Positions 1,467 to 48,185 of a stretch of DNA of 64,000 nucleotides are shown here, piece by piece. The notes beneath the pieces are model-generated. The model was given only the letters and a program-made list of their open reading frames with translations. It ran no database searches and had not been told where the DNA came from. The position numbers and the translations under genes are program-made. How positions within the stretch are numbered: position 1 is the stretch's first letter; each line of letters begins with the position of its first letter. The DNA is from Isurus oxyrinchus (lineage: Eukaryota), in contig JANJGN010000013.1 in the NCBI GenBank assembly GCA_026770705.1, positions 58,590,001-58,654,000 on the forward strand, read 5' to 3'.

Positions 1467-1519
1467 TGTCAAAAGTATATGCAACCTTAACCTGAGATAA
1501 AAGGAGGGGACTTTTTTTT

Positions 1520-3525
1520 TTAAGCCTCCCTCTCCTTCAGGAACCCAGCAAGAAACATATGGACCCTCCGCTGGGCATTCCTATCCAACTCTGGGGCCTT
1601 GAGGGCCTAGGGAGTGGACCAGTACACCAGCGGAAAAGAATACAACTGGTCCATGGCCAACTGTACCCTGTCCCTGCGACCGCGATTACTCGCTAAAAAA
1701 ATCCTGGAGTTCCCGTGGGGGGATGAGGGAAGAGTCAGCGAAGGGCACTAGGGGATCTACCACCTCACCCGATAACAACTCCAAGTCATCCCCGGTGCTC
1801 GCCACCGAAACTCTGTCCTCCTCCAGGTTGTTACCTCCAGCTTCTGACCCCTCCCCCGTACTGAATATGGGGGCTGGTTCGGAGCTGCCAGTCAGCTCCA
1901 CCTCCAACTCGATCCCACCCCCAGGATCAAAGCCAGAGGGGTCCTTTCTGGTCTCCGCTGTGGGTTTTGGGTCAAAGGGCAGCGGCATCTCAGATACCTG
2001 CTCCCTCCAAGGCACTGGGTTGTCCGGCGAGCTGAGGAGAAGCTCCTGACCTAAGACAAGGACGCCTGGTGCTAAAGGTAGGGAGGGAGCAAGAAGGCTT
2101 TCTTCACCACCGCCACCCAAAGACCTGGTTGACAGTTTTAAAAACGGGGTGCTGCAGTTCCCCGATGGGCCAGATGAAATCTCAGGGGTGTTTAATGGGT
2201 CTGTGTGGGGCACCTCCTCAAGGGAGGCACCCTCAGCAACCCTCAACAGGCCCTGCTCAGGGGACTGCAGCAAGATGATGGGGGAAACAGTAGGGATGGG
2301 GGTTTGGGTTTCTCCCAGAGGACAGAGCGAGGAGTTACAGGGCGGAGACACCACCACTTCTTCGCCTGGGGAGGGGACACACAACGTCTTCAGCCGGGGT
2401 GTCCCCCTCCTCCGAGGGTATCGTCTCTTCTGGGTAGGCTGGGGAGACCTCCATTTGTGAGGCCCCCCTCCACCTTGTCCAGCCCTCCCGGACGTTCCAC
2501 CCTCTGGGGTTTGGGCTTGTCCATCCTCTTTAGCAGCACTACCAGCTCGGGGTCGCGAATCACACCCCTGCCGGCCCCAGGAACTTGCACGGTGACGGCG
2601 ACGGGCCCAGCACATGGCGCCAAGGTGCATATAGGCCCGGGAGCATGTGCGGAGCTGACACCAGAGCCGGATTTCTGTTATCTCCGAGCCGGTGCCTTCA
2701 GGGGTTTGGTGGTCCTGGGTGTCTTGGGGGTGCTGGGGAGTCTCGGGGGCCGCTCCCAGGTGGGTCTTCCTCTACGCCTTCTTACGGCGCAGGGGCTCTC
2801 CCTCCGCCTCAGCAGCAGCCGGGATGGCAGTGGTTGTCGGCGCCAACTCCCCTTGCGGGGAGGGAGATGGAGTGGTGGCAGGAGGAGGAGCGGCGGTGCC
2901 AGCCACCTCCGCCTGAGTGACAGTGGTGGCTTTGGAGGCAGGGCAGTTATCATGAATGTGCCCCACCTCTTTGCAGGCATGGCACTGCACGCCGTCCACC
3001 GACCAGGAGACGCAGTAGGCAGCCCCCTCAAAGGTTAGCTCAAACTGCCCCTCCGTGCACTCCTCCCGGGCCAGGCCAACAAAGACCTGGCGCCGGAAGG
3101 AGTACACGTGGCGGATGCCGTGCTCCCTGAGGCCGAGCAGGATCAGCACCACCCTGGACCTGACCTCCCCCAGTTGGTGAAGGTGGGGGAGGAGGAGCTC
3201 ACTAGGAATGAAGAGCAGGACATTGGATAAAATAAATCTCTCCGCGGTGGCCCCTTGGCACCGCCCGCTCAGACCTCAGGAAGAAAACTGTCTTCCCGTA
3301 CATGTGTGAGTCTGCAACAACGGCCGAGGGCTGACAACCCCGGCCAAAGCCTTTGTGCGTGCCTCTAGAGTTATCTCGGGGTGGTTGTAGCTCTTTACAC
3401 CCATAGCCCTGGTCAGGGGGCGGAACGGTGACGGGGCCACGGGAGCAGCAGAGGCCATGGGAGCGGCCACTCCCGCATGGGTCCTCTTAGCGGTCCCCGC
3501 CGCCAATGATAGCACCGCATTCACA
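1520..3525 (-). pseudogene. Tx1 copy A ORF1 (gag-like zinc-knuckle protein), disrupted
   Basis: Pieces at 2772-3152 (CCHC) and 1686-2630. The start-codon region present in copy B (about 9864-9955) is deleted at about 3527. Confidence 0.8.
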
Positions 3526-4319
3526 GTTTTATAATGGGATGACGGGGTGGAGGAAATAAATTCAGGATGACCCTCTCCCTCCTTATTGTGTAAAAAGGCA
3601 GAAGGGGAAGAAAAAGAGAGGGAAACAAATGTCAGGGAGGCACAGAAGGGGTGGCGGTAATGGATGCAGAGTGGGTTGGTGCCACTGGGTGGAGTGGAGC
3701 AGGTTGATGGGGGCCAACTGTTCTTCTCGTGGCGGGGGTGGTGATGTCTTTGCCAGGCAGCCGGTACTGCCCGGTACACGGAAGCAGGTCCTGTTCACCA
3801 GGAAGCACCCGCTGGGGTGGGTGGTGCAAGATATTAAACGGACAGACGCACGCACCCCTTCTTCCTGAGTCCCTTCAGTAGTCTTTTTCCTCCTCCTACA
3901 GAGCAATACAATCTTCAAAGCCCCCACCAAACAACAGTCCAGACACCCACCGTTGATGAAACGAGAAAGTCCTTTCCTCCTGGCCTCCCTGTCTTGCAGC
4001 ACCTCTTCCCTCTCCCTCTTGCCCTCTGCTCCAATTCTTCAGGCCTCAGGCCCCACAGCAACAGCAGCAGGAATATAGCCTCAGGAACAGCCGCAGGGGA
4101 ATCCCAGATCAGCCTCAGGAGCAGCTACAAGGTATTTGAATAGCAACAAAGCAGGAGCAAAACACACAGGAGCAACCAGAGCAGCCAGCAACAACCAACT
4201 CCCTCTTTTAAAGCCAACCTAATAAACTAAATTAACAAAACGCGGGGTAAAATTAAACGCAGCCCCTAAATTAGGGTCACTGTAAAACCAAAGACAAAAT
4301 TTAAAGGAAACTTACAACA

Positions 4320-7300
4320 TCAAACCAAAATGTGATTAAGGGGGTCGATAAAGAACCCCAGCCCCCATGCACGGAAGGTCTCGACGGTGCTAGCAGACAT
4401 TGCATGTTCCCTCTCCAGGGACACATGGCTGCAAACGTAGCCGCGGAAGAGGGCCAAACAGTCAGGTGGGACAACCCCCTCGATCGCCTGCTGCCTGGAT
4501 CTGTTAATGGCTAATTTGGTCAGGCCCAGGAGCAGGTTCATGAGGAGGTCCTCCTCCTTCCCAGCCACCCTCCGCACCGGGTATCCATAGATCAGGAGCA
4601 TGGGACTGAAGTGCAAACAAAACAGTAATAAAATGTTTTTTAAGTAACTGAAAAGGGAGTGCAGCCTACAACACCCTATATAAACACAGTCCATGAACTC
4701 CACAAGACCACAAAAAGGGCAGGTATCTTGGGAGTCCATGAGCTGACACATTCCATGATTGTAGGGGACTGCTGCATGCAACACCTTCCACCCCAGATCC
4801 CCGATGGAAAGCGGGAGGACACCTCCATAGAGGGCCTCCAAATGGGGACCTCTGCCACCGGATGGCAACAAGGCACACCAGGGTGTGTCAGGGTGGCAGG
4901 CAAGGGCAAGGAAGTGAAGGGTGTGCAGCAGCAGCCCATATAGGAAACCCCTCTGCGCCGTGCTAAAGGGCATAGAGTGCATTTCCCTGAGGCAGCTCAT
5001 ATTGCGGGGCACCAGCTCGCGAGGGAGGGTTCGGGGCTTGGGGCCAATGTGGAATTCCATCCGAACAGGGAAACATTCAGTCGGAAGACCACTGCGCACC
5101 TGCGCCACCTCGAGATAGAAAATAATGTCAGGGCCGAGCACGACCATCCTAAGGTCTTGAATAGCATCGGCCTCGAGCCGGATGCACGACGCGCCAACTC
5201 CTGTAGAAGCATCCAGCCCAATCCTCCGATACCCAGCACGTCCCCAATTCTGGTCACCCCAGCAGCCACAGCCCTCCTCTCCGCCAGCCACTGAAAAGGA
5301 AGGAGGGGCGGATTCCTGAGCAGCGGCTTTCTGACGACAGCCGCTACTCCTGACGGGGAGAGCTGCATCGCAAGGCGACCATGTTCCAGACTTTGATCAG
5401 GTCCTGGTAAAAGATGGGCAACGCCTGCAAGGAGCCATGAAGGCCCCTCTGCTCTATAAACAGGAGCTGCATGTCATCATTCAGGCTGTGCACCTGACGG
5501 AAGAAATACGTCGCTAGAGCACACCATCTCGGAGGGGGCTCAACGTAAAGGTATCGCTGCAGGGCCTGAAGGTGGAAAGTTGCCACCTGGGTGCGTAGGC
5601 ACACCAACGCCTGACTGCCCTTCCTATGCAGGAGACTTGAACCTCAGCAGTGACCCAGTGCAGTCTTTTGTCCCAGGAGATGTCGACAAGCCTTCTCTGG
5701 ATTTTCATGACAAAGTCCGGGGGAGAGTCAAAGTGACCAGCCAGTACCACAACATGGCGACAATCAGCTGGTTTATGACCAGAACTCGACCCTGGTAAGA
5801 CAGTGCTCGGAGCAGTCCTGTCCAGCGCCACAGGCGAGCGGTGACTTTCGTCTCCAGTTCCTGCCAGTTCGCCGGCCAGGATTCCTCAGCAGGGCAGAGA
5901 TGCACCCCCAGGTAGAGGAGGCTGGTCCTGCTCCAGGTGAAAGGCCCGAGTTCCTCAGGTAGGGGATCCATCTGCCATGGACTGACCAGGAGTTCAGAAC
6001 GCTTATCCCAGTTGATCCTGGCAGAAGACACAGCAGAATAAACCTCCTGGCACTCGCACATCCTCTGCAAGTGAGCCGGGTCACTAAACATAAGGAGCAC
6101 GTCATCGGTGTAAGCCGAAAGGACCACCCCGATGCCCGGCCTGCGCAGGACCAATCCCGACAACCTCCTCTGCAAGAGATGCAGGAAAGGCTCCACACAA
6201 ATAGAATACAACTGGCCAGACAGGGGTCAAATCTGACGGACCCCTCTCTCAAAGCAAAGGGGCGCCATCAGGGACACGTTAACTAGACACTCCGCGGCAG
6301 TGTACAGAAGTCAGATCCGGGCAACAAAATGCGTCCCGAACCCGCAAAGTTCCGAATAAATATTTGTGATCCACCCTGTTGAACGCCTTCTCCTGATCAA
6401 GAGACAGGAAGATGCCCAACAGACCAGCTCTCTGAGAATATTGAATAATGCCCCGGACCAGATGAATGTTATCATAAATGGTTCGGTCCGGGACAGTATA
6501 GAACTGGTCAGGGTGGATCATGTGGTCCAGCACGGGGCCAAGCCGAGAAGACATGGCCCTGGCAAAAATGTTATAATCCGTGCTGAGAAGGGAGACCGGG
6601 CGCCAGTATTTAAGAAGGCAGCAGGGCAATCACGGCCCTGCTCCACGAAAGGGGTATCTCCCCGCTTGCAATACTCTCCCCCAGACCCCCTACGAAGTTG
6701 CTCCCTGGGTGTCCCAGAACGTCCTGAAGAACTCCATGGTCAGTCTGTCCAGTCCCAGGGATTTGCCCCTGGAGAGGCTGTCGAGGGGGCTGGTCAGCTC
6801 CCCCAGACTTATAGGGGAGACAAGCTTTCCGGCGCCCTCTGGGCCGACCTGCGGCAGGTCTTCCCACAAAACTCTGCGAGCATCCTCGCTGGACGGATCC
6901 GGAGAGAACAGGGCAGTGTAATAATCTCGGGTGATGGCCCTGATACGCTTCGGATCCGAGACAAGGGATCCGTCATCGGCCAGGAGCGTAAGGAGCTGCT
7001 GACGGACCCCGTGACTTTTTTCTAGCGAGTGGAAGAAGGGGGAGCCTCGGTCCAGGTCTGCGAGGAACCGGATCTGCAACCTCATGAATGCGCTACAGAA
7101 CTCGACGAATTGCAGGTCCCGCAGCGCGCCCTTCTTCTCATCACACACCAGCCACCGGGCCGGGTCCGCATCAGGCTGACAGAGGCGTGCCTCCAGGTGG
7201 AGCACCTCCTCCTCCAACTCCTCGACCCTGGATTTCCACCTCTTTGCTGACCCCCTCGCGTAATCCTGACAGAAAACACGGACATGAGTTTTGCCCATGT

Positions 7301-8023
7301 CCCACCATCGCCTCAAGGAGCCCAGAAACGACGAAATGAGTCCAGGAACTGCTCATCCTCCAGCAGCAGGTTGTTAAAGGGCCAGTAAGCAGACCCCGTC
7401 CGAGCGCAGAATGGAGCAAGCTCCGCCCACACCAGATAGTGGTCCGTGCACGGCACCCACCGCACAGAAGCCGATGGAATACAGGACACGTACGCCCTGG
7501 AAATGTAAAGGTGGTTGAGTCTGGACACTCTGACTCCAGGTGACACAAAGGTGAAAATGCTGGAGTCAGGATGGAGATTTTGCCAGACATCCACCAAGTC
7601 GAAGGACCTGACTGTCGATGGTGCCAAGATGAGTGGACACTTCCTCAAAGAAGCTTGCTTGCTGCTACACGCCCAGGGGAGCGTACATATTCACAAAGTA
7701 AAGTGCTGCGCCCCCCAGGCGCACAGTGAGGTGCAGCCACCAGCCTGGCACTGGCTCCCTGACCCATCCCCGCACCCCAAGATCTCTGGCTGAAAATGTG
7801 GGGCCAACAAGGTAGCCACCCCGCCAGAATTGGAGGCTAGGTGACTCATGTCGACCCCACCTTGCCACTCCAGGAGCCACATAGCTTTGTCTTCTGGAAT
7901 GGTCTGGGTTTCCCGCAGGAAGCACAGTGCATACTTCCCGTCCCTGAGGACTGAGAAGTTCTGGAACCTGTGCTGTGCGTGCCTGCTGCAGTGGATGGTG
8001 AGGCTGGCTATGGTAGTCTTCAT
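4320..8023 (-). pseudogene. Tx1 copy B ORF2 (endonuclease, reverse transcriptase, C-terminal zinc finger), frameshifted with deletions
   Basis: MKTTIASL; WRPVSLLSTDY; SLDQEKAFNRVDH; SAYTDDV; YLGV; CPFCG. The GGDFN region is deleted near 7612. Confidence 0.88.
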
Positions 8024-8076
8024 TGTCAGAAGTATTTGCTCCCTTCGTCGGAATTAAAAGGAGAGGACTTTTTTTT

Positions 8077-9904
8077 TTAAGTCTTCCTCTCCTTCAGGGG
8101 CCCAGCGAGAAATGTATGGACCCTCCGCCGGGCGTTCCAGTCCAGCTTGGGGGCCTTTAGTGCCTCACGGGTGGACCAGAACACCAGAGGATATGAATGC
8201 CACCGATTCAAGGCCAGCTGGGCCCTGTCTTGGAGACCGCAATTGCTCGCCAGAAAATCCCAGAGTTCCCCAATGGGGATGAGGGGGGAATCAACAGTGG
8301 GCTCTGAAGCCTCTATCACCTCACCTGGCTCTAACAACTCTAGGTCATCGGTGGTGCTCGCTATCGACACCATATCCTCCTCCAGGTCGTCGCCTCTGGC
8401 TTCCGACCCCTCCCCCGCATTGAGTGCGGTGGTTGGTTTGGAGCTGCCAGCTGGTTCTGCCTCAGCCTCAATCCCACCCCAGGATCAAGGCCGGAGGGGT
8501 CTTCTCTGGTCTCCTTTTCAACATCTAGGTCAGAGGGTGGCAACGGCTCAGAGACCTGCCAGGCGAATCCAGAAAAAGCTCTGGGCCCAGAACAGTAGAA
8601 TCTGGTGCCAAAGGCTGAGATGGAGCGGGGAGGCCCTCCTCACCAACGTCAACCAATGACCCAATTGTTGGGGCCTTGATGGGAGTGCTGCAGTCCCCTG
8701 GTGAGCCAGGTGACACTTCGGGGTTACAAAGCGGATCTGGGCGGGGCCATGGTTGCAAGGGCGATACCCTCACTGACCCCCGAGGGGCCCTGCTCAGGAG
8801 ACTGCAGCAAGGGAACAGGGTTAACTCGAGCTTGGTTTTGGGCCTCGCCCAGTGGGCAGAGCAAGGACTTGCAGGATGGAGATGCCACCACCTCTTCACC
8901 AGGGAAGGAGACACATCCACCTGCACTCATTGGAATGTCCTCCCCTCTCAGGGGTGACGTCTCTTCCAGGGTAGGCTGGGCAGACCTCGATGCGGGAGGC
9001 CCCCACCACCTCGTCCAGCCCTCCCGGAAGCTCTGCCCTCTGGGGTTTGGGCAGGTTGACCCTTTTTAATAAGACAACTAGCTCGGGGTCATGCGCCCCA
9101 CCGCTGCCGGATCCCGAAACCCGCGCGGGTATGACGCCAGATCCAGCACATGGGCCTGGGAGAACGCGCAAAGAAATCGCCGGGGCCATATGATGACCTT
9201 CCCCCTAGCCGGTTTCTTCAGGGGTTTTTGGTTTAGGGGGATTTGAGTGGTCTCGGGGGCTGACCCTAGGTGGCGGGTCTTCCTCCGCGCCTTCTTACGG
9301 CACGGGGGCCCTCCTCCTGCCTCACCGGCAGCCAAGGTGGCAGTGGCTGCCGGCAGCACCTCCCCTTGCGGTGAGGGAGATGGAGTGGTGGCGGGAGGAG
9401 GAGCAGCGGTGCCAGTCACGGCCGCCTGAGTGACGGTGGTGGCTTTGGAGGCAGGGGAGTTATTACGAATGCACCCCACCTCCTTGCAGACATGGCACCG
9501 CATGCCGTCCGCCGACTAGGAGACGCGGTAGGCAGCCCCCTCAAAGGTTACCTCAAACTGCCCAAGAAGCCCCGCCTACGGTGAGCCCCTTGGCACCGCC
9601 CATTCAGACCTCAGGAAGAACACTGTCTTCCCGTACATGGGTGAGAATGCAACAATGGCCGAGGGCTGACAACCCCGGCCAAAGCCTTCACGTGTGCCTC
9701 TAGAGTTATCTCGGGGTGGATGTAGCTCTTTACCCCCACAGCCCTGGTCAGGGGGCGGAACGGTGACGGGGCCACAGGAGCAGCAGAAGCTACGGGAGCA
9801 GCCACTCCCGCATGGGTCTTCTTAGCGGTCCCCGCTGCCAATGATAGCACCGCATCCACAGTTGCCCCAGGGGGCCCGGTCCCCAGTGACCCTGTGGCAG
9901 CCAT
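8077..9904 (-). pseudogene. Tx1 copy B ORF1, disrupted
   Basis: ATG at 9904 (MAATGSLG), degenerate knuckle CHVCKEVGCIRNN, internal deletion near 9565-9585. Confidence 0.8.
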
Positions 9905-10812
9905 TGGGGGATGAGCCACCCCCACCCCGAGCTCTGCCGGTGTTAACAAGAACGTTTATAATGGGATGAGGGGGTGGAAGAAATAAATTCAGGATGACCC
10001 TCTCCCTCCTTATTGTGTAAAAAGGCAGAAGGGGAAGAAAAAGAGAGGGAAACAAATGTCAGGGAGGCACAGAAGGGGTGGCGGTAATGGGTGCCGGGTG
10101 GGTGGGTGCCACCGGGTGGAGTGGAGCAGGGTGATGGGGGCCTAACAGTTCTTCTTGTAGGGGGAGGGTGATGTCTTCACCAGGCAGCCGGTACTGCCTG
10201 GTACACGGAAGTCAGGTCCTGTTCACCAGGAAGCACCCGCTGGACTTGGCCCAGGGTGGGGCAAAAAGGGGGGTGGGTGGTGGAAGATATTAAATAGACA
10301 GACGCATGCACCCCTTCTTCCTGAGTCCCTTCAGTAGTCTTCTTCCTCCCTCTACTGAGCAATGCGATCTTCAAAGCCCCCACCTAACAACAGCCCAGAC
10401 ACCCACCGTAGATGAGAAGAGAAAGTCCTTTCCTCCTGGCCTCTCTGTCTTGCAGCACCTCCTCCCTCTCCCTCTCTGCTCCAATTCTTCAGGCCCCACA
10501 GCAGCAGGAATACAGCCTCAGGAACAGCCACAAGGGAATCCCAGATCAGCCTCAGGAGCAGCTACAAGATAATTGAACAGCAACAAAACAGGAGCAACGC
10601 ACACAGGAGCAGCCAGAGCAATCTGCAACACCCTATTCTCCACACTCCCAGCAGCAGCAGCAAACAAACTACAGCTGAGAGCAATTGTGGAGAATTAACT
10701 CTGAGTCAAACAATTAAACTAAATTTAACAAAATGAGGGATAAAATAAACTCAGCCCCTAAGTTATGTCAGCTGTAAAATCAAGGACAAAGTTTAAAGGA
10801 AACTTACAAACA

Positions 10813-13800
10813 TCAAATCAAAATGTGATTAAGGTGGTTGATAAAACACCCCGGACCCCGGTGACCACTGGGCACGGAAGGACTCGACGGTGCCAGCAGA
10901 CACCGCATGTTCCCTCTCCAGGGACACCCGGCCGCGAACGTAGCCGCGGAAGAGGGCCAGTCAGGAGGGACGATCCCCTCGATCGCCCGCTGCCTGGACC
11001 TGTTAATGGCCAACTTGGCCAAGCCCAGGAGCAGGTTCACAAGGAGGTCCTCCTCCTTCCTGGCCCCCCTCTGCACCGGGTATCCATAGATCATGATTGT
11101 GGGACTGAAGTGCAAACAAAACAGTATTAAAAGGTTTTTTAAGGAACTGAAAAGGGAGTGCAGCCTACAACACCCTATATAAACATGGACCACAGACTCC
11201 ACAAGACCACAAAAAGGGCAGGTATCCTGGGAGTCTGTGAACCTACGTATCCTATGATTATAGGGAATTGCTACATGCAACACCCTCCACCCCAGGTCCC
11301 CGATTGAAAGCAGGAGGACACCTCCGTAGAGGGCATCCCAATAGGGCCATCCGCCACCAGACGGTAACAAGGCACGCCAGGGTGTGTCCGGGTGTGGGCG
11401 AGGGCAAGGAAGTGAAGGGTGTGCAGCAGCAGTCTGTATAGAAAGCTCCTCCGCACCGTGCCAAGTGACACAGAGGGCATGATCCCGAGGCGGCTCATAT
11501 TGCAGGGCACCAACACCCATGGGAGGGTTCAGGGCTTGGGGCCAATGTGGAATTCCGTCCAAACGCTGGAACATTCAGACGGAAGACCACCACGCTCCTG
11601 CACCACCTCGAGACCCAGTAAGACGTCAGAGCCAAGCACGACTGTCCTTAGGTCTTGAATGGTATTGGCCGCGAGCCAGATGCGTGACTCGCCAACTCCT
11701 GTGGAAGCATCCAGCCCACTCCTCCGCCACCCAGCATGTCCCTGATCCTGGTCACCCTGGCAGCCACAACCATCCTCTCTACCAGCCACTGAAAAGAATG
11801 GAGGGGCGGATTCCTGAGCAGCGGCTCTCTGATGACAGCCGCTACTCCTGACGGGGGAGAGCTGTGTTGCGAGGCGACCATGTTCCAGACTTTGATCAGG
11901 TCCTGCTAAAAGACGGGCAACGCCTGCAAAGAGCCACTAAGGCCCCTCTGCTCTATAGACAGGAGCTGCACATCATAATTCAGGCCGTGCACTTGGCAGA
12001 AGAAATACGTCACCAGGGCATACCATCTCGGAGGGGGGTCAAGGTATCGCTGCAGGGCCTGAAGGCTGACCGTTGCCACATGGGTGCGAAGGCACATTAG
12101 CACCTGACCACCCTCCCTAAACGGGAGACTCAGAACCTCAGCAGCGACCCAGTGCAATCTTTTGCCCCAGAAGAAATCGACAAGCATTCTCCAGATTTTT
12201 GTGACCAAGTCTGGGAGAGAGGTCAAAGTGACCAGCCGATACCACAGCATGGTGGCAATCAGCTGGCTTATGACCAGAACTCGACCCTGGTAAGACAGCA
12301 CTCGGAGCAGTCCTGTCCAGCGCCGCAGGCGAGCGGTGACTTTCATCTCCAGTTCCTGCCAGTTCGCCGGCCAGGATTCCTCAACAAGGCAGAGATGGAC
12401 CCCCAGGTAGAGGAGGCTGTTCTTGCTCCAGGTGAAAGGCCTGAGCTCCTCGGGTAAGGGATCCATCTGCTACAGGCTGACCGGGAGTCCAGAACATTTA
12501 CCCCAGTTGATCCTGGCAGAAGACGCGGAAGAGTAGACCTCCTGGCACTCGTGCATCCTCCGCAGGTCAGCCAGGTCACTAAACATAAGGAGCACGTCAT
12601 CGGCATAAACCGAAAGGACCACCCCGATGCCCAGCCCGTGCAGAACCAAACCCGACAACCTCCTCCACAAGAGACGCAGGAAAGGCTCCACACAAATAGA
12701 ATACAACTGGCCAGACAGGGGGCAGCCCTGATTTACCCCTCTCCCAAAGCGAAGCGGTGCCGTCAGGGACCGGTTAACCTTAACTAGACACTCTGCGGCA
12801 GTGTACAGAAGTTGGATCAGGGCAACAAAATGCATCCCAAACCCGAAGGCTCGCAGAGTTCTGAATAAATATTTGTTATACACCCTGTTGAATGCCTTCT
12901 CCTGATCAAGGGACAGGAAGGTGCCCGACAGACCAGCCCTCTGGGAATAATGGATAATTTCCCAGACCAGATGGATGTTATCAAAAATTGTGCGGCCTGG
13001 GAGAGTATAGGACTGGTCAGGGTGGATCATGTGGTCCAGCACGGTGCTGAGCCAAGAAGACATGGCTCTGGCAAAAATGTTATAATCCGTGCTGAGGAGG
13101 GAGACCAGGCACCAGTTTTTAAGAAGGTGGAGATCTCCCCACTTAGGCAGTAGGGCTATCAAGGCCCTGCTCCACGAAAGGGGCATCTCCCCGATTGCGA
13201 TACTCTCCCCCAGGACTCCCGTGAAGTCACTCCCCAGGACATCCCAGAACACCCTGAAAAACTCCATGGTCAGCCCATCCAGCCCCGGGGATTTGCCCCT
13301 GGAGAGGCTGTCGAGGGGGCTGGTCAGCTCCCCCAGGCTTAGAGGGGAGTCAAGCCTTCCGGTGCCCTCTGGGCCGACTTGCGGCAGGTCCTCCCTCAAA
13401 ACTCTGCGAGCTTCCTTGTTGGACGGATCCGGAGAGAACAGGGCAGTGTAATAGTCTCGGGTAATGGCCCTGATGCCCTCCGGATCTGAGACAAGGGATC
13501 CGTCATTGGCCAGCAGCGTAATGAGCTGCTGATGGACCCCGTGCCTTTTTTCCAGTGAGTAGAAGAAGGGGGAGCCGTGGTCCAGGTCCTGCAGGAACCA
13601 GATCAGCGACCTCACAAACGCGCTCCGGGAGCCGACGAGTTGCAGGTCCCGCAGCGCAGTCTTCTCATCGTACACCGAGCACAGGGCTGGGTCCACGTCG
13701 GTCTGACAGAGGCGTGCCTCCAGGTCGAGCACCTCCTTCTCCAACTCCTCGACCCTGGATTTCCGCCTCTTTGTCGACCCCCTTGGGTACTCCTGACAGA

Positions 13801-14667
13801 AAATGCGGACGTGAGTCTTGCCCACGTCCCACCATAGCCTCAAGGAGTGGAAGATTCCCCCCTTCCTTCTCCAGCCGGCCCAGAAACGACGGAACGAATC
13901 CAGGAACTGCTCGTCCTCCAGCAGCAGGTTGTTAAAGTGCCAGTACGCAGACCCCGTCCGAGCGCAGAATGGAGCAAGCTCCGCCCACATCAGATGGTGG
14001 TCTGTGCACGGCACCTGCTGCACAGAAGCCGACGGAACACAGGACACATACACCTTCGTAATGTAAAGAAGGTTGAGTCTGGACACTCTGACTCCAGGTG
14101 AGACAAAAGTGAAAACGCTGGAGTCAGGATGGAGATGTCGCCAGACGTCCACCAAGTCGAAGGACCCAACAAGGTCCCGCAACTTACTCACATCTAGCAT
14201 GTATTGCTGGGCACTGTGATGGTCCCGGGCCTTGAGGGTGCAATTGAAATCCCCTCCGAGGACGATGTACTCGTCCGCGTTGATGGAGCAGAGATGAGTG
14301 GACACTTCTTCAAAGAAGCTTGCTTGCTGCTGTGCGCCCAGGGGGAGCGTACACATTCACAAAGTGAAGCGCCGCGCCCCCCAGGCGCACAGTAAGGTGC
14401 AGCAACCAGCTCCTTGACCCCCAAGATCTCAGTCTGAAAATGCGGGGCCAAGAAGATAGCCACCCCGCCAGAATTGGAGGCTAGCCGACTCATGGCAACC
14501 CCTCCTCACCACTCCAGGAGCCACGTAGCTTTGTCTCCTGGAATGGTATGGGTTGCCTGCAGGAAGCACAGCGCATACTTCCCATCCCAGAGGACCAAGA
14601 AGTTCTGGAACCTGCACTGCACATCCTTGCTGCCGTGGATGTTGAGGCTGGCTATGGTAGTCTTCAT
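10813..14667 (-). pseudogene. Tx1 copy C ORF2, frameshifted; longest open stretch 628 aa (12470-14356)
   Basis: LGGDFNC, TDH, YWHFNN, KSPGLDGL, DQEKAF, QGCPLS, YADD, YLGV, CPFCG motifs. Confidence 0.9.
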
Positions 14668-14716
14668 TGTCAGAGGTATGTGCAACGTTCACCTGAGTAA
14701 AAGAAGGAGACAACCT

Positions 14717-16818
14717 TTAAGCCTCCCTCTCCTTCTGGAGCCCAGTGAGAAACATATGGACCCTCCGCTGGGCATTCCTGTCCAGCTCGGGGGCCTTGAG
14801 GGCCTCAGGAGTGGACCAGAACACCAGCAGAAATGAATACCATTGGTCCATGGCCAACTGGACCCTGTCTCGGCGACCGCGATTACTCACTAAAAAGTCC
14901 AGGAGTTCCCAGTGGGGGGATGAGGGGAAAGTCAGTGGAGGGCACTAGGGGATCCACCACTTCACCCGACAACAACTCTATGTTGTCCCCGGTGCTCAGC
15001 ACCGAAACTCTGTCCTCCTCCAAGACATTGCCTCCAGCTTCCAACCGCTCCCCTGTATTGAGTAGGGGGGCTGGTCCAGAGCTGCCAGTCGGCTTCACAT
15101 CCACCTCGATCCCACCCCCAGGATCAAGGCCAGATGGGTCCTCTCTGGTCTCTGCTAATGGTATCGAGTTAGAGGGCAGCGCCATTTCGGACACCCGCTC
15201 TCCTCCCGGCACCGGGTCACCTGGTGAGCTCCGCAAAAGCTCCTGCCCTAATACTAGGACGCCTGGTGCTAACAGTTGGGAGGGAGCAGGAAAACCATCT
15301 TTGCCACCGCCACCCAATGACCCGGTCAGTATTTTTAAACAGGGGGTGCTGCAGTGCTCCGATGGGCCATATGATACCTCGGGGGTATTTAGTGTGCCAG
15401 TAAAGGGCACCCCCTCAAGGGTTGTACCCTCAGCGACCCCCGAGGGGCCCTGCTCAGGGGACTGCAGCAGGTTTATGGGGGGAACACTAGGGGTAGGGGC
15501 AGGGGTTTGGGTTTCCCCCAAAGGGCAGAGCGAGGTGTCACAGGGCGGAGACGCCACCACCTCTTCACCCGGGGAGGGGACACCCCCAACCTCTTCAGCC
15601 GAGGCATCACCTCCTCCTCTTCCTCCTCCAAGAGGTGACATCTCTTCCGGGGTAGGCTGGGGGCTGGGGAGACCTCCATTTGCGAGGCCTCCTCCACCTC
15701 GTCCAGCCCTCCCAGATACCCCACCCTCTGGGGTTTAGGTCTTTCCACTGGCTCGGGGTCACGAGTCTCACCCCCGCTAGCCCAGGGAACCTGCGCAGGG
15801 ATAACGCCGGGCCCAGCACACGGCGCTTCAGTGCTCACAGGCCCAGGAGCACGTGCGGAGATGACGCCGGGGCCGGATGTTTGTATTTCCCCCGAGGCAG
15901 TGTCTGCAGGGGGTTGGTAGTCCTGGGTGTTTTGGGGAGTCTCAGGGGCCGCCCCCGGGTTTCAAGTCTTCGTCCGCGCCTTCTTACAGCACGGGGGCTC
16001 TCCCCCACCTCACCGGCAGCCGAGATGGCGGTAGCTGCCGGCGACGCCTCCCCTTGCAGGGAGGTTGAGTAGTGGCAGGAGAGGAACGGTGGTGCCAGCC
16101 ACGGCCGTTTGGGTGGAGTCGGTGGCCTTGGAGGCGGAGCAGGTCTTCCTGACATGCCCCACCTCCTTACAAGCCTGTCACCGCACGCCATCCGCGGTCC
16201 AAAATACCCGGTAGGCGGTCCCCTCAAAATTTACAGTAAAGGCCCCCTCCAGGCACTCCTCCCAGCCAAGCGGACGAATACCTGCTGCTGGAAGGAATGC
16301 ATGTGGCGGAGGGCCGCATCCTTGAGGCCGAGTGGGATGGGCGCAATCCCGGACCTGACCTCCCCGAGTTGATGGAGGTGGGGGAGGAGGAGCTCACCGG
16401 AGACAAAGGGTGGGACATTTGAAATAATGATCCTCTGGGCAGTGGCCTCTAGGGGGTGCAACACCAGAAAGGTCCCGCCCACAGTGACCCCTTTTTACAG
16501 GGCCAGGTTCACCGCCCGCTTGAACCTCAGGAAAAAGATGGCTTTGCCATACATCTTTGAGGCTGCAACTATGGCTGAGGGGGCAACAATCCCAGCCATA
16601 GCCTTAACGCAGGCCTTGATAGTCACATCGGGGTGAGTGTAGCTCTTCACCCCCTAGGGCCCTCTTGAGAAAGCGGAAAGGTGACGGGGCCGTGGGAGCA
16701 GCAGGAGCCAAAAAAGCAGCTGCCCCCGCATAAGCCTTTTTGGGACCGCTACTGGTGACAATACCGCCTCCACATTTGCCCTCAAAGGCCTGGCCACAGG
16801 TGATGGTGAGCTAGCCAT
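14717..16818 (-). pseudogene. Tx1 copy C ORF1, disrupted
   Basis: ATG at 16818. Fragments include IIISNVPPFVSGELLLPHLHQLGEVRS...LRHMHSFQQQVF, typical of Tx1 ORF1. Confidence 0.8.
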
Positions 16819-17599
16819 TGGGGCTGAGCCACACCCACCCCGAGAAATAATGGTCTTAATAATACTTTTTTTTCAATAAAGCTGCTCCCTGGCGGGGGGT
16901 GGGGGGGCGGGGGGGTGGGTGGGGAGTAAGGAGGAAATAACCTCCCCCTCTGAGATGTTAAATAGAGGAGAGGAGAGGAGGGAGAGGGGCAGAGGACAGG
17001 GAGGCACAGGAGGGAAAGGGGAAAGTCTAGATGGGTGTCTTTGATGAAAAAATGGATGGTGGGTGGGGGCCTCCTTGATCTTCCGGTAGGGGGAGGGTGA
17101 TGTCTTCACCAGACAACCAGTACTGCCTGGCACACAGATGTTATGCCTGTTCCTCTTCACCAGGTAGCACTAGCTGCCTGGGCTTAGGCCTACTGAAAAA
17201 TTAGGTGAAAGATTCAGGCTTGGGGGCAGGGGCGGGGGGAGGGGTGGTGGCAAGATTTTTTGGAACAGAACACACACACCCCCCTTTTTCTCCCCCAAGT
17301 TCTTAGGGCAGTCTTCTGCCCTCCCCCTACAAAACACAGTCCTTAGCAGCCCCCACCTGAACAAATAGAAAGTCCAGACACCCACCTAGGATGCTATAAT
17401 TTTCAGTCCTGGCCTCCTGGCCTGCCTGTCCTGTAGCAGCAGCAGCAGTTCTTCCTCTCCATCTCTCTCCTTCCCTCCTTTGGCCCTACAAACAAGGCCC
17501 TCCAAACTCCAACTCCCCCAGGCAATGGAGGAGGATGATGAATTGGTGGAATCCTGAAGGCTTCCTGGAGGAATCCAAAGAAGGACACAGGACACAGGA

Positions 17600-17790
17600 G
17601 CAGCAGCCAACTCTCCTCTCTATAGGAGGAATTCAGCAGCAGTAGTAGTCAGCAGAGCAGAAAATAGGAGAACACAGCAGCAGCATCCAACTCTCCTCTC
17701 TATAGGAGGAATTCAGCAGCAGTAGTAGTAGTCAGCAAAGCGGAAAGCAAAACACAGCAGCAGCATCCACCTCTTCTCTCTCCCTGGCTA
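17600..17790. repeat. About 80-bp tandem monomers (two complete plus one partial) in the 5' UTR of Tx1 copy C
   Basis: CCAACTCTCCTCTCTATAGGGAGAATTCAGCAGCAGTAGTAGT occurs twice, 80 bp apart. Confidence 0.85.
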
Positions 17791-17941
17791 CAACTGAAGC
17801 AACAATGAGTTGCAGCTGAGAGCAATTGGGGAGAATTAGTAGCACAGCCTGTGTGTGGGTGTTTATCAGTTGTACATACTGTTCATTATTGTCAATAAAC
17901 TCTCAAGGAGCCTCCCTGCCTATAGCTGCTTGTTGAGCTTG

Positions 17942-18013
17942 GCCTAAATAGCCAAGTGGTTATGGTACTGGGTTTGTAACCCCAAGATTGAGAGTTCAAA
18001 TCTCACAATGGCA
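17942..18013 (+). pseudogene. tRNA-Thr(TGT)-like head 1 (Pol III A and B boxes, not a functional cloverleaf)
   Basis: 72 nt. A box TAGCCAAGTGG, D stem GCCA/TGGT, loop TT-TGT-AA, B box GTTCAAATC. Only 3 of 7 acceptor pairs form. Confidence 0.75.
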
Positions 18014-18206
18014 AAACTATGAAACAATGTAACTTCATCTGAAACAGATGAAATGGGTTTGTGCTCGAAAGAGTATCAAGAGTTCAAATCTCACAATGGC
18101 AAAACTGTGAAACAATGTAACTTCATCTGAAACAGATGGAAACGGGTTTGTGCTCGAAAGAGTATCAAGAGTTCAAATCTCACAATGGCAAACAATATAA
18201 GGCTTG

Positions 18207-18278
18207 GCCTGAATAGCCAAGTGGTTATGGTACTGGGTTTGTAACCCCAAGATCTAGAGTTCAAATCTCACAATGGCA
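18207..18278 (+). pseudogene. tRNA-Thr(TGT)-like head 2
   Basis: Near-identical 72-nt copy of head 1. Confidence 0.75.
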
Positions 18279-19699
18279 AACAATGTAACTTCATCTGAAA
18301 CAGATGGAAACGGGTTTGTGCTTGAAAGAGTATCAAGAGTTCAAATCTCACAATGGTGAAACAATGTAACTTCATCTGAAATGGATGGAAACGGTTTGTG
18401 CTCGAAAGAGTATCAAGAGTTCAAATCTCACAATGGCAAACTATGAAACAATGTAACTTCATCTGAAACAAATGGAAACGGGTTTGTACTCGAAAGAAAT
18501 CAAGAGTTCAAATCTCACAATGGCAAACTATGAAACAATGTAACTTCATCTGAAACAGATGGAAATGGGTTTGTACTCGAAAGAAATCAAGAGTTCAAAT
18601 CTCACAATGGCAAACTATGAAACAATGTAACTTCATCTGAAACAGATGGAAACGGGTTTGTGCTTGAAAGAGTATCAAGAGTTCAAATCTCACAATGGCA
18701 AACAATGTAACTTCATCTGAAACAGATGGAAACAGGTTTGTACTCGAAAGAGTTACAAATAATTATGGCTACTTGTTCTAATGAGCAGTGTTTTTGTCAC
18801 TCAGATGTGAAATCTTTCTACACAAGATAAAGGCAGGTGTTTCAGTCCAGGGCCTCTTCCCTGTGCTCTGTGCAGCCTTCAGACCACAGCGATGGTCCGG
18901 CCTGTCACTCCCTGGAAACATTAGATGCTTTCACATCGGCGGTGCTGGTCATTGTTGCCAGAATGTGGTGGGCAGGTGCCACAGAGTTCTCTCATTCTTT
19001 CGTCGTGCTCTCAGCACATTTAAGGAGGAGCTGGCCCCCATCACACCAGTATCTGTGACCACTGGTGCTGTGCTCCAGCTCCTGAAGGGCTCAGGTGCTG
19101 AAGATGGACAAAGATGCTATTCAAGTTCTTGGCTGTGCCTCTATGATGTGGCCCACTGAGCTGCCCTCAGCTGGACAGGAGTCAGACATTCTCAGAGGTT
19201 ATGTGAAGGTTTATGGAGTGTCCTCACTGCATATCATAGGGCCTCCACTGTGTCTCCATGACAGGAGCATTCTCACAGAGAGTATTCACACTGCTATAAA
19301 CCAGACTGGAGCCAAACATTCACAAATATGCTGAGTATTTATAGGGTCTTCTCACTGCTTGTCATCATCATCCTTTACAAATCTAGCAGCTTTGAGGGTC
19401 TCCTGAGCATGCCAAGTCCATGACCTCAGACATTCACTCCCTCTAGCACTGATGCAATCAACAAGATGCATTGCAGCAACTGCCCAAGGCTTCTTTGATA
19501 GCACCTATGAAATACATGACCCCTACCACCTAGGCGAGCAAAAATATAAGAAACAGAAGTGGGAGAAGACTGTAAGGCCTGTCAAACCTGCTCTGCCATT
19601 CAATATGATCCTGGTTAACCTTGGCTTCAGCTCCACTTGATTCCGTAAGCCTTTGCCATGGTTGACCACATTCTCCTCTTCCAGTGCCTTGCCACCATT

Positions 19700-22519: not shown

Positions 22520-24435
22520 TATTAAGAAAATGGCGGTTGCAATGAACAAATATTTTGCTTCTGTCTTCACTCTAGAGGATTAAAAAAACATTCCAGTAAC
22601 AGCTGTAAATCAGGAGATGGAGGGGGAGAACTTAGTTAAATTACAATCACTAGGGAAGGAATACTGAGCTAACAATGGAGCTGCGGGCTGCCGAGTCTCC
22701 CTCCAGGTCCAGATGGTCTTCATCCTAGGATCTTAAAAGAGGTTGCTAATGAGGTAATAGATGAGTTGGTGTTAATTTTCCAAAATTCCCTAGATTCTGG
22801 AAAGGTTCCATCAGACTGAAAATTGGTAAGCATAACCCCTCTATTCAAGAAGGGAGGGGGACAGAAAACAGGAAACTATAGACAATTTAGCTTGATGCCT
22901 GTCATGGGGAAGTTGTTAGAGTCAATCATTAAAGAGGTTATAGCTGGGTACTTAGAAAAACTCAAGGTAATCAGGAAGAGTCCACATGATTTTGTGAAAG
23001 GGAAATCATGTTTAACCAATTTATTAGAGTTCTTTGAAGGGGTAACATATGTGGTGGATAAAGGGGAGCCTGTAGATGTACTGTACTTAGATTTCCAGAA
23101 AGCATTTGATAAGGCGCCACATCATAGGCTATTGCAGAAAATAAAAGCTCATAGTGTAGGGAGTAACATATTAGCATGGGTAGAAGATTGGCTAACTGGC
23201 ACAAAATAGACAGTATGCAAAAATGGGTCTTTGTTTGGCGGGATGTGATGTGTGGAGTCCCACAGGGGTCTGTGCTGGGGTCTCAACTTTTTACAACATT
23301 TTATAATTTACATCAATTATATAGATGAGTGGAGTGAAGGCATGGTAGCTAAATTTCCAGGTGACACAAACATAAGTAGGAGAGTATGTTGTGAAGATGG
23401 AGTTTGTGGATGGATATTGATAAGTTGAGTGATTGGGCAAAAATCTGGCAGATGGAGTATAATGTGGGAAAATGTGGAGTTGTTCACTTTGGCAGGAAGA
23501 ATAAAAAAGCAAAGTATTACTTAAATGGAGAACGGCTACAGAATTCTGAGCTGCAGAGGGATCTAGGTGTTCTAGTACATGTGTCACAGAAAGTTAGTTT
23601 GCGGTACAGCATGTAATCAGGAAGACTAATGGAATGCTATCCTTTATTACAAGAGGAATTGAACATAAAATTAAGGATCTGTATGACTCTTCATCAGAAC
23701 GATCTTCTACCCATGCTAATATGTTCTGATGAAGAGTCATGCAGATTCGGAATGTTAACTGTATTCCTCTCCGCAGATGCTGTCAGACCTGCTGAGTTTT
23801 TCGAGCTATTTTTGTTTTTGTTTCATATTTCCAGCATCTGCAGCATTTTGCTTTTATAAAATTTAGGATGTTATGCTTCAGTTATACAGGGCATCGGTGA
23901 GACTGCATCTTGAATGCTGCGTGCAGTTTTGTTCTCCTTATTTAAGGAAGGATGTAAATACATTGGAGGCAGTTCAATGGAGGTTTACTAGATTGATACC
24001 TGGAATGAGTGGGTTGTCTTCTGAGGATAGGTTGGACAGACTGGGCTTGTTTCCACTGAAGTTTAGAAGAGCGAAGGGTGAATTGATTGAAATATATAAG
24101 ATCCTGAATGGTCTTGGCAAGGTGGATGTAGAAAGGATGTTTCCTCTTGTGGGTCAGTCCAGAACTAGGGGGCAGAGTTTTAAAATTAGGTGTCACCCTT
24201 ATAGGACAGAGCTGAGGAGAAATTTTTTCTCACTGAAGATTATGTGACTTTAGAACTCCGCCTCAGAAGATGGTGGAGGAGCGGGGTACTGAATATTTTT
24301 AAGGTAGAGGTAGATTGATTCTTGTTAGGCAAGGAAATCAAAGGTTATTAGGGGCAGATCATCCATGCTCTTATTGAATAACAGAGCAGGCTCGAGGGGC
24401 CGAATGGCCTACTTCTGCTCCTATTTTGTATGTTT
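22520..24435 (+). mobile_element. 5'-truncated CR1 LINE (RT plus 3' UTR), decayed and interrupted by a Penelope-like insert
   Basis: ITPLFKKG, GKSCLTNL, DVLYLDFQKAFDK, GVPQGSVLG, RDLGV, LEAVQWRFTRLIPG; 3' hairpin region GGCCGAATGGCC at about 24398. Confidence 0.9.
23679..23855 (+). mobile_element. Penelope-like terminal fragment with short inversion and hammerhead remnant
   Basis: CTGATGA-AGAGTC core, inverted copy at about 23678-23700, TSD ATAAAATTAAGGAT (23665-23678) / ATAAAATTTAGGAT (23856-23869). Confidence 0.8.
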
Positions 24436-25034: not shown

Positions 25035-25351
25035 CTGTAAAGGGAAATAGTTTAAAAGCAGGAAAGTAAATAAATCAGATGTGGCTGCAATTCTGGGCGA
25101 AAGCAATTGGTGATTTTCGCTGGGTTTCTCACTTTTGTCCGTCGTAATCACGGAATGCAAGCTGTCTTAATAATACTGCATTACCTTACCTCCCTTTCTG
25201 ATTTTGCCCCCACACATTCCTCTGTTATCTCATTATTTCATGTTTTAGGGACTAAATGCATCTGGCAATTCCAATAAGCCAGAGGTAAATGTTGATTTTA
25301 ATTGAGTTATACATCTGTGCAATTGGCTTCAATGAACATAAAATATCAGTG

Positions 25352-25588
25352 TTGAAAACAAAGAAAACTGCGGATGCTGGAAATCCAAAACAAAAACAGA
25401 ATTACCTGGAAAAACTCAGCAGGTCTGGCAGCATCGGCGGAGAAGAAAAGAGTTGACGTTTCGAGTCCTCATGACCCTTCGACAGAACTGTTCTGTCGAA
25501 GGGTCATGAGGACTCGAAACGTCAACTCTTTTCTTCTCCGCCGATGCTGCCAGACCTGCTGAGTTTTTCCAGGTAATTCTGTTTTTGT
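25352..25588. mobile_element. Palindromic Penelope-like terminal fragment, 99-bp arms with 1-nt spacer
   Basis: 25390-25488 is the reverse complement of 25490-25588. Perfect TSD ATAAAATATCAGTG at 25338-25351 and 25589-25602. Same sequence as the tail of the GIY-YIG-bearing copy at 33091-33779. Confidence 0.9.
25490..25526 (+). ncRNA. Minimal type I hammerhead-like motif with variant core (mirror copy on minus strand 25452-25488)
   Basis: GTT-CTGTCGA-A-GGGTC-ATGAG-GACTC-GAAAC-GTC-AAC. Core differs from the canonical CUGANGA at A6. Confidence 0.55.
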
Positions 25589-26374
25589 ATAAAATATCAG
25601 TGCTCTAATGACACTGAGGTGTCGTCTTTTGAATGTGGCCTGTCCGGCGGACACCATGAAGCACGGCACAAACCCGATGCAACTTTTCCTCGTGTTGTGC
25701 AGTTGGTAACGTCTATAAATGAAATAATTAATGTCGCTAATTGCTTCGAGTATTATTTCTAATTGGCTGTTGCATGCGCCCTGACAAAATTATATCAAAC
25801 ATCAAGCTGCAGTTTTGCTGCACATTCACATCTCATGATTTAGTCTCAATAAAAGTCATCTTTTGTTCGCCTCATTGCCAGGGATAGTTGTTACATTTCC
25901 GATATTTCGCTTACAATCATAATGGTGCTATAAGGAAATTAAATGTCCCAGAACAAACCCCCGCGCTGTTCACTTCGGATTTGATTTGTTCCTATAATGT
26001 GATTCCATAAACTGACAAAATAATCCCAAGGCAAAGCGACTTGTCGGTGAAGCATTAAATGATTCTGGAACTCCGCTACTCTCTTGACATTTATGCGGAT
26101 CTTCCCACAATCCCGGCCAAATTTTCAACCACGGACGTCCCAAAGCACGGCACTTAATGCAAGCTGTCTTCCACCCTCTTAATAATAATGCATTACCTTA
26201 TCTTACCTCCCTTTCTGATTTTGGCCCCACACATTCCTCTGTCATCTCATTATTTCCTGTTTTAGGGATTAAATGCATCTGGCAACTCCAAAGACCCAAG
26301 GGTAAATGTTGATTTTGATTGAGTTATACATCTGTGCAATTGGCTTCAATGAACATAAAAGGTCGGTGCATTAA

Positions 26375-33090: not shown

Positions 33091-33779
33091 AGAATGACCC
33101 AAACCTCCCTGTCGCTTGCCATTTTAACACTCCACCCTGCTCTCTTACCCACATGTCTGTCCTTGGCTTGCTGCATTGTTCCAGTGAAGCCCAACGTAAA
33201 CTGGAGGAACAACACCTCATCTTCCGACTAGGCACTTTACAGCCTTCCAGACTGAATATTGAATTCAACAACTTTAAGTCGTGAGCTCCCTCCCCCATCC
33301 CCACCCCCTTTCTGTTTCCCCCTTCCTTTTTTTTCCAATAAATTATAAAGATTTTACTTTTCCCACACCCCCACTAGAGCTATACCTTGAGTGCCCTACC
33401 ATCCATTCTTAATTAGCACATTCATTTAGATAATATCACCAACTTTAACTTTAACACCTATGTGTTCTTTTGTACCATTGTTGTCGACATCTTTTGATGA
33501 TCTGCTTCTATCACTGCTTCTTTGTCCCTACAACCACACCCACCCCCCCACCTCTCTCTCTCTCTCTCTCCGCCCCCCGCACACACACCTTAAACCAGCT
33601 TATATTTCAACTCTTTCTTGGACTCGAACTCAAGTTCTGTCGAAGGGTCATGAGGACTTGAAATGTCAACTCTTTTCTTCTCCGCCGATGCTGCCAGACC
33701 TGCTGAGTTTTTCCAGGTAATTCTGTTTTTGTTTTTATTTTTGTTTTGGATTTCCAGCATCCGCAGTTTTTTTGTTTTT
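33091..33779 (+). mobile_element. 5'-truncated Penelope-like element (GIY-YIG C terminus, 3' UTR, hammerhead-bearing tail)
   Basis: PVACHFN...RKLEEQHLIFRLGTLQPSRLNIEF, stop at 33284. TSD ATCATACAACA at 33080-33090 and 33780-33790. Confidence 0.9.
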
Positions 33780-33925
33780 ATCATACAACAGGTTGTGTCT
33801 CTCCCTACCTTGTCCCACCATTGCTAAGCTTCAGACGCTGAAGTAGTGCCCTGTGAGAGATTGATGTTACTTCAAAAAGTATTCTTGGGCACTATTTCAT
33901 TATTTTGTAAAGAAGGCTGGGTATC

Positions 33926-33959
<34 letters not shown>

Positions 33960-35004
33960 AATGTTTTCATTTACGCTGGACAGACGTTACTAGGAGACAA
34001 GTTGTCTGCAGAGTTTAAAACATGAAAGGAGAGAGGCGTCAGGTTTGAGGTGCAAGTGAATAGGTTGGATCTAATATTTGTATTTTTAGATAAGTTGAGA
34101 GTTTGTTTGAATATCAAAGGGAAGCCAGAGACAAGAAGAAACATGTTTGCATCTTGTAGGACTTCCAATGGTAAACAAAAGAGGGTATATTACACTTTAT
34201 TGACCCGAAAGCAAAGGAAAAGATTGAAACTTAAATCCTTCTAAGTATGAAATCTTCCATGTATCAAAGAGGTGTCAGAACAATAGAACTTGAAGTTAAA
34301 GGAAAAAAAGGTATTTTAGTGTTATTGTGGAGAGATTAGGAGCTGAGCAGTGAGATGCAGCTGTTATCTGTAGCTCTAGGCTGCGAGAAGCTGCAATTTG
34401 AATCAGCCATCCAGTCAAGCCAGCGAAGCCTTGGGCTGCAACAAACAGTCTTGTTCTGAAGTCTTGGATTTTCACAGCAGAGTGGAAGAGAGTTAGAGGT
34501 CATGTGATAAGTCTTTATTAAAGCTATAGCAGTTTGTCGAGGGTAACATTACTGGAATTTTATGGTTAAACATTTATAAGCGAGTGTTGTGGATCTGACC
34601 AAATAGGTAGTCATAGGGAATATTTTGTTAGACTAATTTTAACTGTGTAACTGTAACCTTTTGTGCTTAAGTTTTTTCTTACTTGTTGATAAAACTTCTA
34701 CTTTTAATTTTTAAAGTCCAAAAAGTGTCACTGGACCTCTTGCTGCTGAGATCAGCACGTCCCTTTCTCGTTTTCAGAATACAAAAAAGAAAGGGTATGA
34801 CCCATAAACCAAGTTTCCCTCTAGGATTTCATTTGCACAGCAGTTAACATCGGCCATGGTCATAACAGCTTTGGGAGCTTTTTGCTGGATTATTAAAATT
34901 TCTTGATTGGGTTGGAGCTTGTGAATCCAAGGTATATGAATACGAGAAGAACGCTGAACTCAGGAGTTTTGTGTTGAGGGGCTTAAAAGTGACTGGACTG
35001 CAAA

Positions 35005-41321: not shown

Positions 41322-41560
41322 GTGTAACGAAATCTTTTATATAAGAGGATATGCGATTTATTTACACACGGAGCTATTTTCTACGTTAAACTGACGTCGG
41401 CACTTGCCTTTTACTAGTTGAAGTTTCGATATATAGAAGTTTGTTGAGATGTTACAGTTAAACATTTATATATGATTTGAGCACAAGTATACAGATGTAC
41501 ATGTAATAACCGACATGGGGAGGCTGAATTGACGCCCACCCATACTGTGAAAGCTATAAA
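41322..41560 (+). repeat. Non-coding block homologous to 63161-63416
   Basis: Shared anchors GTGTAACGAAATC, TGCGATTT, TTACTAG, GAAGTTTCGAT, CAAGTATAC, ATTGACGCCCA and AAAGCTATAAA in the same order. Confidence 0.8.
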
Positions 41561-41711
41561 CTTAGAATACTGTTGGAAACATGATGGTGTGAAGTAAGAG
41601 GGCGATGCACAAGAGGCCGGATTTGCAGGAACACATAAATTCATGTAATAGTCGTTAATCCCCTGCTCCATGTTCTCCAGCATCTTCATAAGATCATCTA
41701 GTATGCATAAA

Positions 41712-48154: not shown

Positions 48155-48185
<31 letters not shown>

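Follow-up and report, generated by a model that had tools for sequence, protein, structure and literature searches.

SINEs composed solely of tRNA-derived monomers have been described in mammals, among them the dimers and trimers of the colugo t-SINE/CYN and armadillo DAS families (PMC4758252, PMC3531059). According to the accessible parts of these descriptions, the first monomer keeps its Pol III boxes and no LINE-derived tail was found, and template switching by the reverse transcriptase has been described as well (PMC4758252). Squamate SINE-derived satellites (sSat) are tandem repeats of a part of a SINE, with 70-290-nt units, and a minor variant keeps both SINE ends in the portion of the account available (PMC10702118). 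A large share of the copies of the jerboa Dip SINE are head-to-tail multimers of up to eight units, as summarised in PMC8466645. Short head-to-tail units are likewise reported for animal non-LTR retrozymes and the pseudo-LTRs (pLTRs) of Penelope-like elements (PLEs), as far as the text of 10.64898/2026.07.22.740005 was accessible. The cartilaginous-fish SINEs HE1 (V-SINE), SacSINE1 (Deu) and CmiSINE (CORE) are described in outline as having tRNA-derived heads, that of CmiSINE from tRNA-Ala, together with a conserved body and a LINE tail (PMC3747384, PMC5499810).

Here, we describe an 829-bp insertion of ten tRNA-like units in a row within a 64-kb window (the whole stretch of DNA that was analysed) of animal DNA rich in retroelements. 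Re-phased at the tRNA 3' end, the array reads as ten collinear monomers of two types, H with A and B boxes and D with the B box kept and the A box lost, in the order given in Table 1. The element shares tRNA-derived monomers with t-SINE/CYN and DAS and differs from both, as they are described, in a unit number that varies up to ten, in the mixture of two monomer types and in an end that lies inside a degenerate monomer and has no poly(A). Mammalian complex tRNA SINE families end in A-rich tails. The seven internal D units compare with the at least four middle units from a SINE part by which sSat is defined; unlike sSat in the available account, the whole array lies within one target-site duplication (TSD), its unit is a tRNA-like monomer in permuted form, and there is a second head, in phase. 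Dip multimers are described as full-length SINEs with A-rich tails, whereas neither the A box nor the 3' end is present in the internal units here. Retrozymes and pLTRs resemble the array in their short head-to-tail units, and its TSD length equals that of the local PLE inserts, but the units tested have neither a type I hammerhead nor similarity to the pLTRs, and there is a tRNA head with Pol III boxes. Compared by description, the cartilaginous-fish SINEs have a conserved body for which this element has no room, and a LINE tail. They agree with it in the tRNA-derived head and likely in host group, the repeats of the window being shark-like by resemblance. At 829 bp and with unrelated 5' flanks, the element falls among SINEs as characterised in the accessible text of SINEBase, that is, interspersed and <1 kb (PMC3531059). 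We conclude that it represents an abundant, probably undescribed variant of the complex tRNA-only SINE, with multimers throughout the family and a predicted folded end, and is not a retrozyme. Neither this SINE family nor a PLE-moved SINE was found in the literature searched; an earlier annotation in Repbase, Dfam or SINEBase is possible.

Table 1. Features of the compound SINE insertion and its borders (window coordinates).
Feature	Position	Strand	Basis or remark
Left part of a high-copy host repeat, the SINE target; resumes right of 18777	17856..17920	.	Summed depth 1.1e5-7.0e5 (X1)
Left target-site duplication, 14 bp	17921..17934	+	12/14 versus right copy; empty site in public contigs
Whole compound SINE, 829 bp, H-D-D-H-D-D-D-D-D-D'	17935..18763	+	
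Family 5' end	~17937		104 + 78 contigs with unrelated 5' flanks there
H1: tRNA-Thr(TGT)-like monomer, A box from 17949, B box from 17994	17937..18012	+	Rfam 30 bits; boxes by consensus pattern
D1 + D2: spacer and A-box-less degenerate tRNA monomer	18013..18189	+	
H2: second full head, A box from 18214	18190..18277	+	Rfam 25.3 bits; collinear with D starts
D3-D7: five further D monomers, 80-88 nt each	18278..18699	+	
Terminal D': D monomer stopping after the anticodon-arm homologue, ends GAGTTACAAATAAT	18700..18763	+	
Predicted three-way junction within D'	18706-18757	+	Predicted fold
Right target-site duplication, 14 bp	18764..18777	+	
First T run of at least 4 downstream, possible Pol III stop, in flank	18791..18795	+	

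The element is one copy of a very abundant SINE family present in two organisms, here called A and B. The element or part of it occurs in 20 of the 24 runs listed, 19 of these being from organisms A and B. For the family survey, 311 bases (17790-18100) were compared with the contigs of four of the 24 runs, and 13,101 contigs matched in run X1 (organism A, ~88% read) and 6,279 in run X6 (organism B, ~50% read); 209 contigs match in a run that is RNA only by guess (X15), and the fourth run, X21 (organism C), yielded no reads. Most of the depth over these 311 bases falls on the element. Depth jumps at 17933-17943, and before 17937 the flanks of 104 and 78 contigs are unrelated (agreement 0.36-0.38), which together indicate a sharp 5' end and an interspersed family. 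Summed depth reaches 7.1 million against 12-81 for singly listed X1 contigs (not a copy number; far above 100). A coral metagenome run with a share of 0.16 in the run listing was not counted as evidence.

The tail-to-T-arm junction belongs to the family as a whole. Depth across it is 2.39 million before and 2.30 million after in X1, and 0.51 and 0.78 million in X6, while the last bin, which contigs holding only the T arm can reach, has 0.52 million (X1) and 0.34 million (X6). Because depth at the junction is well above that of the last bin, much of it spans the join from tail to T arm, and the same junction at high depth in two organisms makes it family-wide. The complete end is the loose-end consensus behind 18050 in 55 contigs of X1 and, near-identical, in 30 of X6 (median loose length 11-13 letters). 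Variants common in the family in X1 lie at 18013 (721k of 2.31M), 18019 (305k of 3.30M) and 18063 (628k of 1.59M). New heads follow partial elements at many points, with depths of 289-1,211 (12 of 265 rows). The family is fairly young, with few private changes per unit and with both monomer and multimer joints present. An earlier, sequence-only reading of this DNA had proposed a SINE-like family, and the high copy in two organisms, a junction that is family-wide and not a one-locus accident, and a true 14-bp TSD all bear this out.

Joints in the contigs that end at 18074-18075 (six of the ten listed) might be taken as proof of a fixed restart; we discount them because the letters between are missing and the second T-arm copy of the reference itself begins at 18075. 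Both organisms also have loose ends before 18068 (8 contigs and 15) in which the same AAAGAGT-ATCAAG junction is preceded by a different, T-rich sequence that may represent a second degenerate monomer type. In X1, joints from 17975 to 18068 and from 17983 to 18068 (two contigs and one) run from the anticodon arm of the head into a D-type end. These could be H/D chimeras formed by exchange in a homologous segment, the letters between again being missing.

Within the insertion, both heads cover positions 1-71 of the Rfam tRNA model and have TGT in the anticodon loop; the first matches at 17942-18013 with 30.0 bits (gathering score 29) and the second at 18207-18278 with 25.3 bits, below gathering. 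ARAGORN reported no tRNA genes in the window. By consensus patterns that we take to be those of the Pol III boxes, the element holds two A boxes and nine B boxes. There are eight tail copies and nine T-arm starts, the latter spaced by 88, 89, 88, 80, 80, 87, 87 and 88 nt, and each D monomer is made up of a 5' hairpin, an anticodon-arm homologue and a T arm with the B box. The seven internal junctions before ATCAAGAG read GAAAGAGT in five cases and GAAAGAA in two, and the GAGTTACA end occurs in the last unit only. The element ends with no poly(A) and with at most a two-unit AAT, and no T run longer than three occurs in the element or in the flank upstream of 18791-18795. The two tRNA-Thr(TGT)-like heads, the repeats that restart at the T arm and run through the tail, the complete end confined to the last unit and the lack of a T4 run before 18791-18795 had all been noticed in the earlier reading, and all hold. 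Nested insertion of head 2 was considered and rejected, there being no second complete end and no inner TSD.

The tail had been supposed to be foreign. Its alignment does not support this, a point absent from the earlier reading: the tail is likely a decayed copy, in register, of the 5' half of the element's own tRNA head. In all eight units, the last 26 nt upstream of the T arm agree between head and tail at 13-19 positions, at an offset of 2-3. Four of the eight agree at 17 or more (17-19), a level reached by none of 17,967 random anchors (seven reach 16), in a 26-nt comparison window picked after the match had been seen. Global alignment of head with D, the shared T arm left out, gives p = 0.0003-0.005 in seven of seven comparisons. 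Unanchored tests are weaker (p = 0.001-0.16, with 5 of 16 above 0.05), and 6 of 5,044 window pieces score equally high. H2 is in phase, at a distance of one 88-nt period from the units beside it, with its leader aligned to the D start. About 9 nt of H are missing from D, among them the greater part of the A box; the second hairpin of D is the counterpart of the anticodon arm, and a tRNA counterpart is lacking only for the 7-15-nt spacer and the final 12 nt. By alignment, then, all modules appear tRNA-derived, as in a complex tRNA-only SINE. Given homology of tail and head, the restarts at the T arm would be homologous continuation. The internal D units carry three extra bases, AGT, that D' has too and H lacks, and for this reason D' may be the older form. 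When the tail was searched by blast against the 64-kb window, no match was better than E = 0.10, and Rfam gave only chance-level matches to it (E 1.8-8.6). Exact-pattern scans of metagenome, prokaryote and viral collections with 22-nt tail and 24-nt T-arm words returned none, a result without bearing on a repeat of animal origin.

A three-way junction is the best predicted fold of the majority tail when it carries the complete end (-16.0 kcal/mol; z = -3.7, 0 of 500 shuffles), with pair probabilities of 0.53-0.99 in the closing helix and 0.94-0.99 in the hairpins. The actual last unit has a break in the second hairpin, and its closing helix reaches a pair probability of only 0.10-0.18; in the three internal units tested it is at most 0.01. 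The junction proposed earlier for the tail thus stands for this majority form and does not extend to the last unit as it is or to the internal units, and the modelling predicts that it can close only at a terminal unit. In neither strand does the 7-bp closing helix keep the sequence of H; the complementarity of the two strands would thus date from after the duplication, and we read it as possible selection for an end signal. Over eight units and 11 pairs, 73 of 75 cells are paired with no both-sided (compensatory) change, which leaves the fold without covariation support.

The flanks of the insertion are identical at 12 of 14 positions and the bases outside both borders do not match. Among random flank pairs, 9 of 4,965 reached 12 matches in a generous 30x30 search. 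In the public contigs, the loose-end consensus behind 17907 (45 and 35 contigs) holds a single copy of the 14-mer, followed by the two bases that lie downstream of the right copy. This is the empty site, and the TSD, previously suggested from the flank match, is thus real. One further joint in the host repeat (17856-17920 and 18778 onward) corresponds to a head inserted the opposite way (17856 to 17937, two contigs). Translation of the right flank of the SINE in four frames gave no Pfam match.

Taking these data as a whole, we lean towards an abundant tRNA-Thr-derived SINE, made of two related monomers repeated in register and dependent on a LINE for its movement. Pol III likely transcribes the compound SINE, judging by the presumed boxes, and the reverse transcriptase of some LINE would likely copy it into the genome in one piece. 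The founder may have been H plus a truncated, diverged duplicate of its 5' half, D'; complementarity gained between the two ends of D' would then close the three-way junction. This terminal fold is predicted to be the start of reverse transcription, replacing a poly(A) or a LINE tail. As D' ends at a position homologous to the variable loop of H, template switching or unequal exchange could place a T arm in register behind that end, giving internal D units that would be unable to close the fold. Further switches between near-identical T arms, across RNAs or copies of subfamilies, would vary the number of units and mix H with D. Typical LINE-moved SINEs have an end unlike the present one, with its lack of poly(A) and at most two-unit AAT, and this counts against a LINE partner, as does the lack, within the window, of any match to the tail better than E = 0.10. 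The proposed history would offer a possible route to a SINE retrotransposition signal that needs no LINE tail or poly(A), in which the head is duplicated and the duplicate refolds. An abundant, fairly young family with monomer and multimer joints also provides a large natural sample in which template switching can be weighed against unequal exchange, and this bears on the birth of SINE multimers and of SINE-derived satellites.

It is tempting to speculate that a PLE, through its reverse transcriptase and its GIY-YIG endonuclease, moved the same all-tRNA multimeric SINE instead, with copying begun internally at the terminal fold. We consider it doubtful, if possible, that a tRNA-only SINE with a head-derived three-way-junction end hijacks the PLE enzyme rather than that of a LINE. 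The SINE TSD is exactly 14 bp, as the earlier reading had noted for all three TSD-flanked PLE-like inserts of the window (13/14, 14/14 and 14/14 identical), although one SINE and three PLE inserts are too few for a target-site signature. L1 and RTE, too, commonly have TSDs of 14 bp, a length that falls within their range. The local PLE copies are young, at 95-99% alike, and the SINE lacks a poly(A) or microsatellite tail, both of which would suit a PLE mover. So would the internal start of reverse transcription of an anole PLE, in a stem-loop non-homologous to the target, as set out in the accessible text of PMC11167929. In non-autonomous Chlamys PLEs, however, the 3' end is generally similar to that of the partner, in the part of the report available (PMC8557442), whereas here no similarity was seen to the local pLTR starts (67-70 nt compared from each; p = 0.22-0.92 across all 12 comparisons), and the window-wide blast of the tail gave nothing better than E = 0.10. 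The three local PLE inserts all have inverted arms, but none of the ten joints listed shows an inversion inside the SINE. For the Penelope machinery once proposed, then, the TSD length agrees, but there is no sequence link to the local pLTRs. Were a PLE the partner, SINE mobilisation would reach a third retroelement class, and this could be tested in an existing in vitro PLE assay. As a control for LINE TSDs, three old repeats of the window were inspected by eye and gave no readable TSD.

The PLEs of the window present features of their own. Four Penelope-like pLTR pieces lie at 23665-23869, 25338-25602, 46334-46586 and 33634-33781, three of them being the inserts that have inverted arms and 14-bp TSDs. 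Near 26355 there is an empty-site paralog of the 25.35-kb insert. In two of three pLTRs tested, the hammerhead core reads CTGTCGA instead of the usual core.

An ordinary SINE, with a tRNA head, internal duplications and a 3' end taken from some LINE that the window does not contain, would require the likeness of tail to head to be chance or later gene conversion, and we think this unlikely. The tail does fold well (z = -3.7), as stringent LINE tails do, and the described cartilaginous-fish SINEs have LINE tails in the accounts accessible to us (PMC5499810, PMC3747384). In-register homology of head and tail and an in-phase H2 are, however, unexpected for a foreign tail.

Alternatively, a monomer may have inserted first and the array grown in place by slippage or unequal exchange, making it a nascent SINE-derived satellite. 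Adjacent units do have variants in common (one in D1/D2, two in D5/D6), so some duplication in the present array or its source is likely, and squamate SINE-derived satellites can retain both SINE ends around internal repeats, according to the part of PMC10702118 available. The junction and three unit variants are nonetheless common across the family in public contigs, and the array contains a second full head. Growth in place as the origin of the array is quite unlikely in our view; it may have added units, but the junction must have another source.

A circular RNA of 80-89 nt copied by rolling reverse transcription, as in retrozymes, would account for head-to-tail units with a recurrent junction and this reading draws on the tandem, PLE-related nature of animal retrozymes, which need a hammerhead in the accessible account (10.64898/2026.07.22.740005), but we find this part of the earlier proposal very improbable, because one circle copied repeatedly would give identical units, whereas six variants are each shared by some of the units, in no periodic arrangement, and three unit variants occur throughout the family, and because none of three tail units fits a type I hammerhead descriptor with fewer than two core mismatches, or with stem I below three. 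The same descriptor, built on the type I core, found all three local pLTRs with one core mismatch and stem I formed. It was used in place of Rfam, which missed the hammerhead in this pLTR control and is therefore uninformative here. A type III hammerhead reading of the tail was rejected on inspection, since the topology fits but the linker is GGAAAC and not the usual core; the likeness CAGATG...ACTCGAAA, from which a degenerate-hammerhead origin of the tail might be argued, is not significant.

The surroundings of the SINE are themselves repetitive. On the minus strand, 1-17850 is a head-to-tail array of ~6.5-kb LINE units, which we take by resemblance to be Tx1/L1-like, with RVT_1 at 12470-14353 and a weak zf-RVT match. 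The units are mostly 70-92% alike in 200-300-nt blocks and have T-rich ends with no poly(A). A unit-boundary motif of this array at 17813-17838 matches 10672-10697, and the SINE lies ~85 nt beyond it. A fragment bearing a reverse transcriptase (RVT_1) at 22.8-24.4 kb is presumably CR1-like. Several decayed repeat copies at 33850-48450, with a weak zinc-knuckle match at 36063-36581 and reverse-transcriptase-like text near 46.6-47.0 kb, are likely fragments of gypsy-type LTR elements.
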